Assembly (NCBI GenBank): GCA_046758445.1
Contig: JBHIAE010000014.1
Coordinates: 1 to 64,000 of the forward strand
Origin: Candidatus Thorarchaeota archaeon
Lineage (GTDB): Archaea; Asgardarchaeota; Thorarchaeia; Thorarchaeales; Thorarchaeaceae
Reading direction: 5' to 3'
DNA length: 64,000 bases
Within the stretch, counting starts at the first letter, position 1; each line of letters starts with the position of its first letter. The position numbers were made by a program, and so were the translations under genes. Under the pieces are notes generated by a model. The model saw only the letters and a list, made by a program, of their open reading frames with translations, did not search any database and was not told the DNA's origin. This document shows, piece after piece, positions 52,743 through 61,564 of this stretch.

Positions 52743-53426
52743 TCATAGAATACGGCTGTGGGAAGGATGCGTTGTTTCGCGGCGCTCTTGACAAGACTCC
52801 TCCAAGACTGGTTCCCAGAGATAGCCCCTGATGAATCTTCTCACAACGGGTCCAACAGTGGCTGCTATGATAGATCCCACAGTGACTTGAACAATGTTGG
52901 TTGTAAGTAGCTCTGCCAAAGCAGCACCGAATCCGAATAGCGGAATCTCTGCTAGGAAGTATCCGGTCAGCATGACCGATGACGCAACAAAAAGCCCTGC
53001 AAAATCCCATATCGTCAGCCACTTGGCAGACCTAGCCCTGCGGGAAATTAGGCCCATGATCATTCCCTCGCATCCCTTTACAACGAGCGTGATGGGTGCG
53101 AAGTGAAGGTATCCAAGAACAATGTCACCCATTGCAGATCCGCACCCTCCTGCAATGAAACCTCCAAAAGGACCAAGAATCAAGCCGCTCAGTAGTACCA
53201 GTGTGTCTCCGAAGTTCAGAAACCCAGTAGTTGTTGGGAACGGGACTGCTATGATGATTGTGGCTACTGTCGTCAGCGAAGTGAGTATTGATAGCAGGGC
53301 GACATAGAGCGCAGGACTTGATGTTTTGGGCGCGAAATATTCCAACGATGTTCTTCCTCCAAGCAGTAGACCGGGGAAGGCATATATAATCGTGAGCCTA
53401 TATATAGGTTCGAACCGAGATGTCAC
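52743..53426 (-). CDS. ECF transporter S component (true start probably near 53345)
   Basis: P..TGFLNFGD, LGP..G..AGG.GSAMGD, APIT..VKG.EG. Confidence 0.85.
   Translation of the reverse strand: MTSRFEPIYRLTIIYAFPGLLLGGRTSLEYFAPKTSSPALYVALLSILTSLTTVATIIIAVPFPTTTGFLNFGDTLVLLSGLILGPFGGFIAGGCGSAMGDIVLGYLHFAPITLVVKGCEGMIMGLISRRARSAKWLTIWDFAGLFVASSVMLTGYFLAEIPLFGFGAALAELLTTNIVQVTVGSIIAATVGPVVRRFIRGYLWEPVLEESCQERRETTHPSHSRIL
53383..53409 (+). promoter_or_regulatory. TATA box plus operator-like TGAGCCTATATATAGGT
   Basis: tatataa-N3-tgagcctatatataggt recurs exactly at 60935-60961; core CCTATATATAGG is a perfect palindrome. Confidence 0.7.
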
Positions 53427-54913
53427 TTCGGTCTGGATTCATGTGTACACAATGTGGGAGCAAGTATGAACCAGAAGTCCAAATCACATCATGCACTGAG
53501 TGCGATGGAGTGTTGCACATTCAGTATGACCTCCAAGAAGCAATAGAGAGTCTGAGTGTGCGGAAACTCCAGAAACGTCGGCCAGGCGTATGGAAGTACT
53601 TCGAACTCTTACCCCTAGGAGAACAGAGCAATATGGTTTCTCTAGGTGAGGGTGGAACACACTTGCACAAGTGTGACCGCCTGGCAAAGGATATCGGTGT
53701 TGTAGACCTCTACTTGAAAGATGAAACCACTAATCCTACTGGTGCATTTATCGACAGGGGAACTGCTGTCGAGGTGTCTGTAGCCAAGGAGCACAGAGTC
53801 AGGTCGATCTGTTGTGGATCTACTGGCAACCTTGCAGCATCACTGGTTGCCTATGCTGCACGCGCTGGCATACAATGCAAGGTGTTTGTTGGTCGGAAGG
53901 CGGTCGTCGACATTGGCAAGTTGTATCAGATTCTTGCATATGGTGACGACGTTGAAATCGTCAAGGACTACAATGAGGCACTGGCACGTGCCCACCAAGA
54001 AGCTGGAAGGAGTCACTTCGTGACAGGGCACAACCCGCACTTCTTGGAAGGGGAGAAGACAACAGTCTTTGAGATCTGCGAGCAGCTTGAATGGAGCACC
54101 CCAGATTGGATAGTGGTGCCCATGGGGAATGGAGGCCACATATCGATGACTTGGAAAGGGCTTACTGAGTTGGAACAGCTCAATCTGATTCCTGACCGAA
54201 ATGTGAAATTGGCTGGGACACAGGCAAGTGGATGTGCACCAATTGTTGATGCTTTCCAGCGAGGTAGCAGAGAGATTATTCCATCCAAGGTGTCATCCAC
54301 CGTTGCTTTTGATATAGGCATGAAGAATCCAACTAGCGGCCACACGGCCCTTTTGGCCATAGAGAGGTCAGGAGGAGAAGCTGTAGCGGTGTCTGATAGG
54401 GAAATCTTTGAAGCAGTCAGGTCTCTCGCTAAGCTTGAAGGAGTTTTCGCGGAGCCAGCCTCTGCAACCACGATTGCAGTTCTGAGAAGACTTGTTGGCC
54501 AAGGTACGATAGACCGCTCTGACAGAGTTGTGTGTGCCATAACTGGTATGGGCTTGAAGTATCCTGAAACTGCAAGATTGTTTGCCAGGGGTAAAGGAGA
54601 ACTAGAGCATCTTCTCAGCAGAGTCGAAGGCAGAAGATTTACAACGGAACTTGGACAGACCAAGATTCGCATTCTCAATATCCTCTCAGCTGCTGAGCTC
54701 TATGGCTATGCTATATGGAAGACACTGGGTGATGAATATGGTATACACATCAAGATTCCAAGTGTGTATCAACATCTCTCTGAACTCACAAGCAGTGGCT
54801 TGATTGTAGCTACCCGTTCCGAAGAAACGCTAAAGAGGACACACCGGAAGTACTACGCGCTCTCTGAGAGAGGGAGATGGATTCTGAAACAACTCAAGAG
54901 CCTGACGGGCTAG
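53420..54913 (+). CDS. Threonine-synthase-like domain (PLP lysine lost) fused to a C-terminal PadR-type winged HTH
   Basis: CxxC..CxxC, SLGEGGT, NPTGAFIDRG, STGN, PMGNGG, EGVFAEPASA, TG.GLK; then LYGYAIW...SVYQHL.EL...RKYYALSERG. Confidence 0.85.
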   Translation: MSLRSGFMCTQCGSKYEPEVQITSCTECDGVLHIQYDLQEAIESLSVRKLQKRRPGVWKYFELLPLGEQSNMVSLGEGGTHLHKCDRLAKDIGVVDLYLKDETTNPTGAFIDRGTAVEVSVAKEHRVRSICCGSTGNLAASLVAYAARAGIQCKVFVGRKAVVDIGKLYQILAYGDDVEIVKDYNEALARAHQEAGRSHFVTGHNPHFLEGEKTTVFEICEQLEWSTPDWIVVPMGNGGHISMTWKGLTELEQLNLIPDRNVKLAGTQASGCAPIVDAFQRGSREIIPSKVSSTVAFDIGMKNPTSGHTALLAIERSGGEAVAVSDREIFEAVRSLAKLEGVFAEPASATTIAVLRRLVGQGTIDRSDRVVCAITGMGLKYPETARLFARGKGELEHLLSRVEGRRFTTELGQTKIRILNILSAAELYGYAIWKTLGDEYGIHIKIPSVYQHLSELTSSGLIVATRSEETLKRTHRKYYALSERGRWILKQLKSLTG

Positions 54914-55127: not shown

Positions 55128-55628
55128 TCAGTGTTCGAATCCCCATGATGCTTTCTCTATAGGTTTGATCTGTAACATTGCTCTATCATCAGCGTTTCTT
55201 GGAGTGAGGTCGTTACGTGCCCATTGCATGTATTGAGGATACCGTTGTAGGAGAAGAGTCCAACCCTTGGTGAATTCACTTTTGTGCTGTTTGAAGCGGA
55301 GAAGCTCTGCAACTCCATTCACCATGATTCCACGAAGCGTCAACCATCTCCCGTGCTCTTCTTCATACCTGTCAACAACTAATGAAACGTGGCTTCCGGG
55401 CTTCAGATTCTTGACGCGCCTACTCCTCATTGAGAGAGTAGTGTAGAAGCAGGACCCATCAAAGACATAACAGACGGGTACAACGTGAGGGGACTTATCT
55501 ATGGGTGACACAGTAGCAATACGTGCCACGCGCTCGGCCCTCAAGAAGATCATTTCGGACCTTGAGAATTGAACACTTCTCACAGTCAGACACCTCTGTC
55601 TTACAGTAGTCTTGTTCACAGGTTTCAA
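55128..55628 (-). CDS. Pyridoxamine 5'-phosphate oxidase-like (PPOX/F420-binding) protein
   Basis: RVARIATV..PHVVPVC, RVKNL....VSLVVD.Y. Confidence 0.85.
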   Translation of the reverse strand: MKPVNKTTVRQRCLTVRSVQFSRSEMIFLRAERVARIATVSPIDKSPHVVPVCYVFDGSCFYTTLSMRSRRVKNLKPGSHVSLVVDRYEEEHGRWLTLRGIMVNGVAELLRFKQHKSEFTKGWTLLLQRYPQYMQWARNDLTPRNADDRAMLQIKPIEKASWGFEH

Positions 55629-56335
55629 GGATAGTTTTGCCCGCGAACTGTTCTCAGAGAGTCAGGTATCTCCAGTCTGTCAGCAACATCTTCAGCAATC
55701 GAGTTCCCGAGCATCTTTCTTAGCAGGAACACACCGAGGGCTATGGACGATGTCACTCCGGCCGCGGTAATGATATTACCCTCATCCACGACTGTATCAG
55801 TTACCACTTCACAATACTGACGCAATTCATCTCTTGCGCCTGCATGAGTCGTGGCTCTCCTGCCTGTTAGCAAACCAGCTGCTCCGAGAAGGAGGGCTCC
55901 CGTACACACAGAACATAGAAGACCATCAGCACTGAAATCACGAAGCCTTGACAATACAGTGTCATTCTGCATGAGAGCCCTCACACCCTTCCCACCCGGC
56001 ACGATCAACATGTCGTATGAGTCGAATGCAACCCCTACTCTGTGAGGCACAACATTCAGGCCATTCGCACATGTTACAAGGTCATGTGCCGCAAGGACAT
56101 CTACTGTAAATGCAGTGTCTACGGCAATCTGGTTCTGATTCAACATTCTCAGGGCGGCTCCAAGAACCTCATATACACCGACGAAGTCGAGCTCTTCCAC
56201 ATCAGGAAAAATGAAGATACCGATTCTACTAATCTTCATCCAAATGCCTCGTGAGTCATGATGGTATACTAGAGTTGACCCTACGCCCGTTAAGGCCTTT
56301 GAGCCAGCACCTGCCGGAATGAAGCTCTCAGACAC
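55625..56335 (-). CDS. DJ-1/PfpI family protein (start probably near 56240)
   Basis: EELDFVG..EV, VPGG.G, SVCTGA, ATTH. Confidence 0.9.
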   Translation of the reverse strand: MSESFIPAGAGSKALTGVGSTLVYHHDSRGIWMKISRIGIFIFPDVEELDFVGVYEVLGAALRMLNQNQIAVDTAFTVDVLAAHDLVTCANGLNVVPHRVGVAFDSYDMLIVPGGKGVRALMQNDTVLSRLRDFSADGLLCSVCTGALLLGAAGLLTGRRATTHAGARDELRQYCEVVTDTVVDEGNIITAAGVTSSIALGVFLLRKMLGNSIAEDVADRLEIPDSLRTVRGQNYP

Positions 56336-59071: not shown

Positions 59072-60076
59072 ATGTTTCACGGCTCCTTTCGAGCAGGATG
59101 CGCATGTATGAATATCAAGTCCGTTGACTTCCTTCTCACGTTCAAGTGTCCGGCGAAATGCAGGCATTGTGCCTACAGAGCTGGACCAGCAATAGGAGGA
59201 CACATGACTGTGCGTAATGCGACCAAATGGTTGACAGACCTAAGAGATTCCCAACCTATTGAAACACTCACAGTTCACGGGGGTGAACCGTTCTTGTATC
59301 CTAAGGTCTTGGAACGAGTAATCAGGAAGGCAAAGGATTTCGGCATAAGCCACCGTGGAGTCATCACCAACTGTTTCTGGGCGCATGATGAAGATAAAGC
59401 TATGAAGACTCTGCATGCCATGAGGAATTCAGGACTCACCGGAATCACCGTGAGTGTTGATGCCTTCCATCAGGAATATGTGGCTCTTGAATGTGTCAGG
59501 AATGCGCTTGAGGCCGCCATTTCAATTGGCTTCGATAGAGTATGGGCTGATAGCTACTTCATCCATTCACCTGAGTTTGAGAATCCATTCAATCTTAGGA
59601 CGTTGCGTTTGTTGGATGAGTTGACAGACCTTGAGAGTGTGGAATTCTCCAATTACCCAGTAGATTTCGAGGGGAGGGCAGCTGATGAATTGGTGCAATA
59701 TGTGTCGTCAAGGAATTCAGAATCGCCTAGCCGCTGTAGGCCTCCACACTGGGTAGGTGAAAGCTATATGGATCCTGTTGGGATTGAGATTGATCCTAAT
59801 GGAAATGTCACGTTCTGCCCAGGGATTTGTATTGGCAATACCAGCGAGCAATCATTGCCTAACATTATGAGAGATTATGATCCAAATGAGCACCCCATAA
59901 TCAGAGCCCTAGTGGAAGATGGCCCCAATGGCCTCTACCGGATGTGCAAGGCTAAAGGGTTATGTGATGTCGTCGAATACGTGGATGATTGCCACTTGTG
60001 CTACATGACGAGAAGGCTTCTCAGGGGTAGTTACCCGAGAGAGCTTTCGCCTGAATCTTGCTACGAAGTCAGTTGA
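59072..60076 (+). CDS. Radical SAM protein with C-terminal Cys motifs
   Basis: CPAKCRHC, GGEPFL, TNCFWA, SVDAFHQE, CHLC. Confidence 0.88.
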   Translation: MFHGSFRAGCACMNIKSVDFLLTFKCPAKCRHCAYRAGPAIGGHMTVRNATKWLTDLRDSQPIETLTVHGGEPFLYPKVLERVIRKAKDFGISHRGVITNCFWAHDEDKAMKTLHAMRNSGLTGITVSVDAFHQEYVALECVRNALEAAISIGFDRVWADSYFIHSPEFENPFNLRTLRLLDELTDLESVEFSNYPVDFEGRAADELVQYVSSRNSESPSRCRPPHWVGESYMDPVGIEIDPNGNVTFCPGICIGNTSEQSLPNIMRDYDPNEHPIIRALVEDGPNGLYRMCKAKGLCDVVEYVDDCHLCYMTRRLLRGSYPRELSPESCYEVS

Positions 60077-60182: not shown

Positions 60183-60902
60183 TTAGCTTACTAAATGCTT
60201 CATGAACTGAATTCGAGGGATGATAGCTGAAACTATCTTGTTCTCTGCCTTCTTTAGATGCTCCTGAAATGTCGTCCGGGGGACCCCTCTAAACGCAGCA
60301 ATTGCTTGGAGATCAGACTTTCGAGGTATCTGATAATAACCTTGGACATACGCGGTAAGGAGTGCATCCATCTGCTTTCTGGTCAGGTCCGAGAGAAGTG
60401 AGGTTGAATGGAATTCGGATGAGCCTGTAATCACCCCTTTGAAGTCGGTCTTTCTCTTGACCTGTACTGAGAAACCATCATCTCTAAGACATTGAAACAA
60501 CTGCTTGATATCTGAATGCCTGAGTGCTACTACTCGATACTCTCCCCATCCTGTTTCCATTCTTATTGGGAGAATGGTGAGTAGGCCTAGCTTCTCGATA
60601 CACTTCATTACACCGAGCTGGTATGCATCTGTCGTCAATCTGGCTACCATGTGAGTTGTGTCTTCCCTACTGCTCAACATGTACACATCGCCGAACGACT
60701 GCAATTCCTGAAGTGCCAGCTGATCTTTGTTATTACCATGTACGACAAGCTCAACGAACACGAACTCTGGATTGAGCCAAATGGACAGAATCAGCGATGA
60801 GAATCTTCGGGAAATCTTGCCTAGCTGACAGTTATGCTCGACCCCCAGAACAATCTCGAAAAGTGGCATATGCCAAGACTCACGCTTCTTGTTTGCCGAC
60901 AC
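60183..60902 (-). CDS. HTH-10 (bacterio-opsin activator-like) transcriptional regulator
   Basis: LTRKQ...L.TAY.QGYY.IPRK..L..IA...GV..TTFQEHL.KAE.K. Confidence 0.88.
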   Translation of the reverse strand: MSANKKRESWHMPLFEIVLGVEHNCQLGKISRRFSSLILSIWLNPEFVFVELVVHGNNKDQLALQELQSFGDVYMLSSREDTTHMVARLTTDAYQLGVMKCIEKLGLLTILPIRMETGWGEYRVVALRHSDIKQLFQCLRDDGFSVQVKRKTDFKGVITGSSEFHSTSLLSDLTRKQMDALLTAYVQGYYQIPRKSDLQAIAAFRGVPRTTFQEHLKKAENKIVSAIIPRIQFMKHLVS

Positions 60903-60934: not shown

Positions 60935-60961
60935 TATATAAGCCTGAGCCTATATATAGGT
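60935..60961 (+). promoter_or_regulatory. TATA box plus operator-like TGAGCCTATATATAGGT (second copy)
   Basis: Same 17-mer and same spacing as 53383-53409. Confidence 0.7.
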
Positions 60962-61009: not shown

Positions 61010-61564
61010 ATGGAAAGAGCCGTAAATGAATCTCAGAACGAAACAGGGCAGCTAACCTCTCCGCAGGTGCAGGTTTCAGAAGCGAGCCCTGCAGACTCGT
61101 ATGACATTCGAGAAGTATTGGAACAAGCATTTCAGGGACTAGAAGAACGAGGATATCCGTCAGCAGCCATTGAAGCGGCGATAATTGATGTTGCCTCAAT
61201 CAGGCTCCGATTGCTCTCCGGCCATATTGTGCTTGTAGCGAGAGTCAATGATTCAATTGTGGGAACTGTCACTGGTATTCAAGAGCACATGAGCATGCAT
61301 TTGAAGTCATTCGCCGTTCGACCCGCCTTCCAGAGAAATGGTATAGGCACATTGCTAGTGAATACGCTCGAATCCATGGCATCCAAACGTGGATGTCGCA
61401 AAGTGTTTCTGTTCACAGCTTGGCCAATGATAGAAGCTGCACGCTTATACCTGAAACTGGGTTACAGACTGGAAGGATACCTCCCGAATCATTTCTATGG
61501 AGAAGACTTTGCAATCTTTGGTAAGTCCATGGTTGAAGCAGACGAGTCACAACATGACTGTTGA
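61010..61564 (+). CDS. GNAT acetyltransferase
   Basis: AVRPAFQRNGIG, A.RLYLKLGY. Confidence 0.88.
   Translation: MERAVNESQNETGQLTSPQVQVSEASPADSYDIREVLEQAFQGLEERGYPSAAIEAAIIDVASIRLRLLSGHIVLVARVNDSIVGTVTGIQEHMSMHLKSFAVRPAFQRNGIGTLLVNTLESMASKRGCRKVFLFTAWPMIEAARLYLKLGYRLEGYLPNHFYGEDFAIFGKSMVEADESQHDC

Follow-up and report, generated by a model that had tools for sequence, protein, structure and literature searches.

A threonine synthase-like protein without the Schiff-base lysine, fused to a PadR winged helix, as a candidate vitamin B6-responsive regulator in archaea

We analysed a 64,000-nucleotide (nt) stretch of DNA from a Candidatus Thorarchaeota archaeon (the window; positions 1 to 64,000 of contig JBHIAE010000014.1, assembly GCA_046758445.1). 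It contains a gene that joins a threonine synthase (ThrC)-like domain, of a fold that carries pyridoxal 5'-phosphate (PLP), to a winged helix-turn-helix (wHTH) domain of the PadR type. Divergent from it lies a gene for the S-component of an energy-coupling factor (ECF) transporter. The original prediction, made from the sequence, had read the fusion protein as a metabolite-sensing transcription factor that controls itself and the transporter in response to PLP/B6 or a threonine-pathway metabolite. The locus comprises the following features, subfamily A being the fused clade that contains the window's protein.

53420..54913, + strand: gene for the lysine-less ThrC-like/PadR fusion protein, an open reading frame of 497 amino acids plus stop (Pfam PALP and PadR)
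53420..53527, + strand: N-terminal four-cysteine zinc ribbon, residues 1-36 (C9, C12, C25, C28), from alignment and model
53636..54547, + strand: ThrC-type fold-type II PLP domain, residues 73-376, the proposed sensor (Pfam PALP, ThrC structures)
53750..53752, + strand: codon ATC, Ile111, at the position of the PLP Schiff-base lysine (sequence; alignment with 2ZSJ and 2D1F)
54671..54886, + strand: C-terminal PadR-type wHTH, residues 418-489 (Pfam PF03551)
52743..53345, - strand: ECF S-component, HmpT/PdxU2-like, candidate importer of B6 vitamers (PF07155; 4HZU chain S)
53382..53389, + strand: TATA-box-like ATATATAA, promoter of the fusion gene (sequence; recurs in most subfamily A loci)
53393..53409, no strand assigned: candidate operator TGAGCCTATATATAGGT, with the core palindrome CCTATATATAGG at 53397-53408, 11 nt before the ATG

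The Pfam PALP family matches residues 73-376 of the fusion protein (E 1.5e-66), and its best sequence matches among solved structures (phmmer against the Protein Data Bank, PDB) are threonine synthases, of which 2ZSJ (E 5.9e-62) is 41% identical across the aligned fold. Residues 105-114 read NPTGAFIDRG, encoded at 53732-53761 by AAT CCT ACT GGT GCA TTT ATC GAC AGG GGA, and fall column for column on NPTGSFKDRG of the solved threonine synthases 2ZSJ and 2D1F. Ile111 therefore stands in for the Schiff-base lysine, a replacement that takes two base changes from a lysine codon (AAA or AAG) to ATC. An AlphaFold2 model built from 50 family members has a mean pLDDT (predicted local distance difference test) of 91.6 and a pTM (predicted template modelling score) of 0.82. 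It shows, in order, the zinc ribbon (two beta hairpins), the ThrC fold, a low-confidence linker at about residues 405-409, and the winged helix, with helices at 413-458 and a beta wing at 462-481. In a Foldseek comparison ThrC structures ranked first (2ZSJ, TM score normalised to the target 0.87, root-mean-square deviation 2.1 Å).

The C-terminal domain scores 47 bits against the Pfam PadR family (cut-off 27; E 2.6e-12) and covers profile positions 1-73 of 75; it also matches the PadR regulator 5DYM in the PDB (E 2e-4). In the 50-sequence family alignment, H452 of the recognition helix is invariant and Y450, Q451 and L453 are at least 90% conserved. In the zinc ribbon, C9, C12 and C28 are invariant and C25 is at least 90% conserved. 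Thus Pfam, the PDB alignment and Foldseek agree with the original description of a complete ThrC fold that has isoleucine in place of the Schiff-base lysine, the PadR-like wHTH claimed for the C-terminus scores above its cut-off, and the AlphaFold model that was called for is confident and contains both domains.

The fusion protein also passes two NCBIfam threonine synthase models, TIGR00260 (217 bits against 167) and NF006050 (309.5 against 303). Annotation pipelines would therefore call it a threonine synthase, and its homologues carry this name in public sources. A further NCBIfam model named 'threonine synthase', PRK05638 (442 positions, spanning the wHTH), was discarded as a named group for the protein: matches fall below its cut-off both here and in 14 of 14 control genomes. 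The segment N-S-V-N-P-Y-R of 2ZSJ, which we take to hold the substrate phosphate in ThrC, aligns with T-G-H-N-P-H-F in the fusion protein, and the arginine of this segment (position 208) is F, L or Y in the fused clade. Of what marks a catalytic ThrC, the fold is present, and the Schiff-base lysine and the presumed substrate-phosphate residues are both absent. Judged by these two defining features, the fusion protein is outside the catalytic ThrC family.

The loss of the lysine is not confined to this protein. A word-indexed search gave 2455 relatives, the best 120 of which were examined for architecture. Every one of these 120 combines PALP with PadR; they come from Thor-, Loki-, Hod-, Odin- and Sif-archaeal metagenome-assembled genomes (MAGs) and from Bathyarchaeia. 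With the query included, 118 of the 121 closest proteins contain NPTG[AS]F[IL]DR, and the remaining three lie outside the search pattern. We also searched the 50%-identity cluster representatives exhaustively and aligned the best 150. Among these, 60 of 62 fused representatives have L, I, V, M, T, N, A, F, S or R in place of the lysine and two have K, whereas K is found in all 72 unfused relatives shorter than 520 residues. A third ThrC-like group of 610-633 residues (P0183, P0201, P0204, P0206 and others) has a PALP domain that keeps the lysine and, after it, a LeuA allosteric (dimerisation) domain. The lysine loss, proposed at the outset as something to check in homologues, is therefore kept in nearly all fused representatives and in every readable motif of the closest set. 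This family-wide loss, together with the two base changes, excludes a sequencing error or a mutation in one genome.

Position 111 is the sole site at least 80% conserved in the unfused relatives at which the commonest residue in the fused clade is a different one. We looked to specificity-determining positions for a clue to the ligand and dropped this approach, as none beyond Lys111 splits fused from unfused proteins at the 80% level. Residues N105, P106, T107, F110, D112, R113, G136, N137, E210, K213, T214, G236, G238, Q268, E345, T375, G376, G378 and K380 are all still conserved, and the PLP framework (the glycine-rich phosphate loop, N137, E210-K213-T214, Q268, E345 and T375-G-x-G-L-K) is kept as in the lysine-bearing relatives. 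Conservation in the pocket of the fused clade points to persisting selection for binding and to a loss of selection for catalysis.

A tree of the ThrC-like part contains two fused clades, subfamily A (support 0.98) and subfamily B (support 1.0). Subfamily A has a hydrophobic residue at the lysine position. Subfamily B has the motif NPTNS[FY][RK]DRA and is found mostly in Bathyarchaeia and in some Odin and Jord archaea. The same tree leaves unsettled both the branching of the two subfamilies and unfused ThrC and the order of fusion and lysine loss.

Could the fusion protein still be an enzyme, using non-canonical catalysis or another residue to hold PLP, and moonlight as a regulator (a trigger enzyme)? 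Conservation of the rest of the active-site framework would fit such a role, as would the few fused members of subfamily B that retain the lysine (P0182, P0203). In fold-type II enzymes, however, this lysine is needed both to form the aldimine and as the catalytic base. Subfamily A never has a lysine there, the residue being L, I, V, M or another non-nucleophile, and lysine-bearing unfused paralogues are on hand for catalysis. We consider a surviving catalytic function very improbable.

Such paralogues are present in the same genome bin (3.25 Mb, 113 contigs, 92.7% complete). It has two fused copies, both lysine-less, the window's (contig C14) and one on contig C68 that is 67% identical, and two unfused lysine-bearing ThrC-like genes (L003 1321-2583 and L004 1456-2643) with the motifs CPSGSFKDR and NPTASFKDR, one of which scores 467 bits to NF006050. 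The question raised earlier, whether an intact thrC exists elsewhere, is answered by these two genes. Two genomes of the same genus (G132, G150) have one fused copy each, 65% identical to the window's protein. The window's copy may therefore be an extra paralogue, or contig C14 may have been binned from a related organism.

Modelled as two copies, the fusion protein scored 0.82, and the best of three controls scored 0.00. Of 30 proteins solved as one-chain pairs, 20 pass the mark for a dimer, and of 23 single-chain structures 1 does; these counts are only roughly valid here because a custom alignment served as input. Three runs had at least 80% of contacts in common, with a partner pLDDT of at least 83. 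The modelled interface is symmetric and involves residues 51-180, 333-343 and 377-403, in the ThrC-like domain and the helices of the linker. ThrC dimers being already solved, the pass of this model may reflect likeness to them.

The neighbouring S gene points to vitamin B6. Its reading frame is open to a GTG at 53426; the probable start is the TTG at 53345, giving a protein of 200 residues, like the orthologue in locus L009, and therefore an intergenic region of 74 nt. The protein scores 100 bits against PF07155 (cut-off 26.7), in agreement with the divergent ECF S-component described originally, and its sole PDB match at E of 1 or lower is 4HZU chain S (E 8.9e-14, 153 residues aligned). This chain is HmpT/PdxU2, the substrate of which has been reassigned from hydroxymethylpyrimidine (HMP) to B6, with pyridoxamine binding reported (PMC4860826), and which is one of three known prokaryotic B6 transporters (PMC9997740). 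The window's S protein belongs to PF07155 as well, as a distant relative from an archaeon with a predicted substrate.

To follow this pairing, we built an iterated profile from the S protein and ran it on the open reading frames of 80 loci, all taken from species-representative genomes. An S orthologue was found in 46 of the 80 loci, and all 46 have the fused gene (L036, L049 and L056 by a tblastn match). The pairing spans Asgard archaea, Bathyarchaeia and Nitrososphaerota. In most of the 46 loci the two genes directly adjoin, a few being at least 1.3 kb apart or in another orientation. The S gene is divergent and upstream in subfamily A and immediately downstream on the same strand in subfamily B. 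On C68, too, the fused copy is paired with a divergent S gene, a paralogue with 50% identity to the one in the window. In three lineages (L050, G007/L099 and G020/L100) pdxS-pdxT takes the place of the transporter: the order is fusion, PdxS, PdxT and a gene for an AIR-synthase (AIRS)-like protein in L050 and fusion, PdxS, PdxT in the Asgard genome G007, and in the Asgard genome G020 PdxT-PdxS is divergent from the fusion. Locus L050 is in a MAG labelled Limnocylindrales bacterium, and L068 (fusion with divergent S-AIRS) is in one labelled 'bacterium'. The gene content of both looks archaeal, and the MAGs are probably mis-binned or mislabelled.

As to the supply of B6 in the window's own genome, we found no PdxS, PdxJ, PF08543 (PdxK/ThiD-type) kinase, ThiC, or ThrB over its cut-off in the 92.7% complete bin. 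A search of the ECF module for its T component gave two hits to PF02361 (EcfT/CbiQ) that pass the cut-off, located on contigs C1 and C6. The missing genes, despite the presence of several PLP enzymes, suggest multiple vitamin dependencies. PdxS was found in 27 of 151 sampled Asgard genomes and in none of the 32 genomes of the window's family, and the fused gene in at least about 60 of the 151, among the matches listed; the sampled genomes are akin to one another, and these counts carry no statistical claim.

These results bear on the choice of effector. A threonine-pathway metabolite (O-phosphohomoserine, homoserine or threonine) could be the ligand if the transporter imported a related amino-acid-like compound. 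The sensor is of threonine synthase descent and scores above thrC cut-offs, and without a detected ThrB in this genome the threonine supply could be unusual. Against this, the presumed substrate-phosphate segment is altered and its arginine is replaced by F, L or Y, and the conserved neighbours include no threonine-pathway gene and instead a B6-type S-component or pdxST. We therefore regard a threonine-related effector as improbable.

Alternatively, HMP, a precursor of thiamine, or a pyrimidine related to it could be both the effector and the transported substrate, and the S-component would then be HmpT in the original sense. The only solved relative of the S protein was first named HmpT, ThiC was not found in the genome, and the AIRS-like companion scores weakly (94 bits) as ThiL. 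On the other hand, the transporter is substituted in three lineages by pdxS-pdxT and not by thiamine genes, the search detected no PF08543 kinase, although ThiD is required for HMP salvage, the sensor has a PLP fold, and the AIRS-like protein scores higher as HypE (126 bits), below every cut-off. HMP is thus an improbable effector. Of the two ligands put forward in the original prediction, the context favours B6/PLP over a threonine-pathway metabolite, because the transporter is HmpT/PdxU2-like and is replaced by pdxST in three lineages.

Within the 74-nt spacer, ATATATAA is followed after three bases by TGAGCCTATATATAGGT, so that the stretch 53380-53415, named earlier as the putative binding region, contains a conserved TATA-plus-palindrome element. 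In most subfamily A loci 3-5 nt separate the TATA element from the extended block downstream of it, and about 7-9 nt separate it from the palindrome of 12 bp. The exact palindrome CCTATATATAGG has three sites in 3.25 Mb, at the two fused paralogues and at a GNAT acetyltransferase gene in the window. The block of the C68 paralogue is 11 nt before its gene and has one mismatch in the 17-mer. A fourth site, a one-mismatch palindrome on C27, was rejected: the flanking TATA and TGAGCC context is missing, and the site resembles an ordinary promoter. L009 belongs to a complete Thorarchaeota genome of 3.2 Mb, in which the only match to the pattern CYTATATATARG is CTTATATATAAG, found in the corresponding spacer. 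Both half-sites of this variant are altered symmetrically, which is what a palindrome bound by a dimer would predict.

Within 200 nt upstream of subfamily A genes, the palindrome is present with at most two mismatches in 22 of 25 loci and with at most one in 21 of 25; background windows of 230 nt from the same loci have a mean of 4.3-5.2 mismatches. The operator-bearing loci span Thor and Hermod archaea, other Asgard archaea, Bathyarchaeia, Caldarchaeales-type archaea and Nitrososphaerales, and the spacer between pdxST and the fusion gene in G020 has two copies of the motif. In subfamily B the palindrome is absent, the best matches having 3-5 mismatches, which is the background level. Upstream of a fusion-S-AIRS operon, six subfamily B loci of Bathyarchaeia (L025, L027, L028, L029, L031 and L034) have AACCGATAAA(A)G in common; the CCGATA half of this sequence is similar to the TATCGG end of CCTATATATCGG, the operator variant of Nitrososphaerales.

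In archaea a TATA box usually precedes the start by about 26 nt, which would put the palindrome between these two points of the fusion gene. Of the sequences available to the divergent S gene, the one most like a TATA box is overlapped by the palindrome as well. This placement suggests repression.

The third palindrome site precedes the GNAT gene, 7.5 kb away, and lies amid the following features.

60935..60961, no strand assigned: second TATA and operator block (TATATAA, 3 nt, TGAGCCTATATATAGGT), between the HTH_10 and GNAT genes
61010..61564, + strand: GNAT acetyltransferase, probable regulon member (operator copy upstream; NCBIfam GNAT matches all below cut-offs)
59072..60076, + strand: radical SAM/SPASM protein, possible link to the module, of uncertain membership (Pfam Radical_SAM; orthologue in L016)

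In the Hermodarchaeum locus L016 (654-3909, - strand), an operon of S, radical SAM, GNAT and EamA genes is divergent from the fusion gene. The window's GNAT protein is 43.5% identical to its orthologue there, and the radical SAM protein is 43.6% identical (E 1e-102) to the one encoded between S and GNAT. A whole-genome palindrome scan found no operator copy upstream of the window's radical SAM gene. The second operator lies in the spacer between the GNAT gene and a divergent regulator gene of the HTH_10/HVO_A0563_N type (60183-60902, - strand), which could be co-regulated or could encode the protein that binds this operator copy.

In 19 fused loci, from Bathyarchaeia and Nitrososphaerota (for example L057 6214-7221 and L050 7033-8037), S or pdxST is followed by the gene for the AIRS-like protein (about 336 residues), whose HypE and ThiL scores are below every NCBIfam cut-off. 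Its orthologue in the window's genome (L004 2903-3913, contig C11; 45% identical) is divergent from a lysine-bearing ThrC-like gene, and no operator was found upstream of it. Since neither a PdxK/ThiD-type kinase nor a ThrB over cut-off was found, the AIRS-like protein is a candidate kinase; it could, speculatively, be the missing one for B6 vitamers or for homoserine.

The effector might instead be a metabolite of these companions (AIRS-like, radical SAM and GNAT), with the B6 genes as part of a wider regulon. This would account for the 19 loci with AIRS-like genes, for the radical SAM and GNAT orthologues within the S operon of L016, and for the operator before the window's GNAT gene. No companion is universal, however, whereas S or pdxST is adjacent at most fused loci; the radical SAM protein of the Bathyarchaeia loci is not homologous to the window's, and the AIRS-like gene of the window's own genome has no operator. 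A companion metabolite is therefore an unlikely effector.

Two further genes, convergent with the fusion gene, encode a PNPOx-fold protein (55128-55628, - strand) and a DJ-1/PfpI protein (55625-56335, - strand). Bacterial PdxR regulons often include a putative PNP (pyridoxine 5'-phosphate) oxidase. The nearest NCBIfam models of the PNPOx-fold protein are F420-dependent PPOX classes, below cut-off. Both genes were rejected as members of the module: they have no homologues beside the other fused loci that we fetched and are probably unrelated.

From its domains and its genomic setting, the fusion protein is very probably a DNA-binding regulator of the adjacent genes. In the full reading that we prefer, it would be a dimeric, B6-responsive one-component repressor acting on the importer and on its own gene, to which we assign a probability of about 0.6. 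The ThrC-fold pseudoenzyme would serve as the sensor and the C-terminal PadR winged helix as the output. The protein would dimerise through its ThrC-like domains, and the PadR domains would bind the predicted target CCTATATATAGG. A B6 vitamer, most likely PLP, would be held in the old cofactor pocket, where the absence of the lysine would make its binding reversible and non-covalent. With ample B6, the vitamer-bound protein would repress the HmpT/PdxU2-like importer and its own gene, and probably also the GNAT gene; elsewhere in archaea the same regulator would act on pdxST instead of an importer. We infer DNA binding, the identity of the ligand and the sign of regulation, and, from operator position and synteny, control of the protein's own gene and of the transporter.

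Several observations weigh against this scheme. Subfamily B has R or K at the lysine position and is without this operator; its mode of action may differ. The palindrome is itself TATA-like, and part of its conservation could be conservation of the promoter. The specificity of HmpT/PdxU2 has been disputed between HMP and B6, in a genome where ThiC was also not found. A B6 salvage route needs a kinase, yet no PdxK-type kinase was found here. Of at least eight Asgard genomes with both the fusion and PdxS, two have them adjacent. Finally, the AIRS-like, radical SAM and GNAT companions fit no simple model of B6 uptake. A more ambitious proposal, that these genes form a complete new unit of archaeal B6 homeostasis in which a reversible PLP sensor controls a PdxU2-type importer or pdxST and the AIRS-like protein is a non-orthologous B6 kinase, is tentative, and we would not expect it to hold in full. 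If it did, the PLP sensor of such a unit would have been born when a PLP enzyme lost its Schiff-base lysine.

We found no paper on this architecture in the full-text literature, with subscription journals outside its coverage, and know of no described regulator of archaeal vitamin B6 metabolism. The fusion family could fill this role in Asgard archaea, Bathyarchaeia and Nitrososphaerota. It would illustrate a route from enzyme to sensor in which the loss of one lysine turns covalent cofactor binding into reversible binding, apt for a sensor. The predicted operator is short, exact and conserved, which makes the hypothesis directly testable with purified protein. There are also consequences for genome interpretation. 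Asgard metabolic reconstructions may count a false threonine synthase, since the fused genes pass thrC cut-offs and are so named publicly. The absence of PdxS, PdxJ and a PdxK-type kinase here, with no PdxS in the 32 genomes of the family, points to dependence on the community for B6, which bears on the culturing of these syntrophic archaea.

The fusion protein can be compared with several known systems. From catalytic ThrC (EC 4.2.3.1), with which it shares the fold, it differs in having no Schiff-base lysine, an altered substrate-phosphate region and an additional DNA-binding domain, and its gene context is vitamin transport or synthesis and not threonine biosynthesis. With the PadR family it shares a wHTH that matches PF03551, a predicted palindromic target and a modelled dimer. 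Classical PadR proteins have an N-terminal wHTH followed by a short helical dimerisation domain, whereas in the fusion protein a sensor of 400 residues comes first and provides the modelled dimer interface, with the wHTH following at the C-terminus.

Archaeal regulators of vitamin genes that combine an enzyme domain with a wHTH have reportedly been described by the Rodionov group, namely ThiR, with a ThiN domain, and RbkR, with a riboflavin kinase domain. The fusion protein is alike in being an archaeal enzyme-domain-wHTH fusion predicted to control vitamin uptake or synthesis genes. It differs from them in vitamin, enzyme fold and wHTH family, and its sensor derives from an enzyme that uses the cofactor, theirs from biosynthetic enzymes.

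The closest parallel is with the bacterial MocR regulators (PdxR, GabR, TauR), which are likewise one-component transcription factors made of a PLP-enzyme-fold sensor and a winged helix, and with which the fusion protein shares a divergent arrangement and, as predicted here, autoregulation. The reconstructed MocR/PdxR regulons hold pdxST, pdxK and pdxU, with PLP as the effector (PMC5320631); here a PdxU2-like S gene accompanies the fused gene in 46 loci and pdxST does in three, and control of B6 genes as in PdxR is a prediction. However, Pfam finds no domains other than PALP and PadR in the fusion protein. MocR proteins have an N-terminal GntR-type wHTH and a fold-type I aminotransferase domain that keeps its lysine and binds PLP covalently, whereas the fusion protein has a zinc ribbon, a fold-type II ThrC domain with isoleucine in place of the lysine, and a C-terminal PadR wHTH. 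The MocR subfamily is, moreover, reported to be absent from Archaea (PMC5320631). Judged by its architecture, the archaeal fusion protein is a convergent analogue of MocR and not a homologue.

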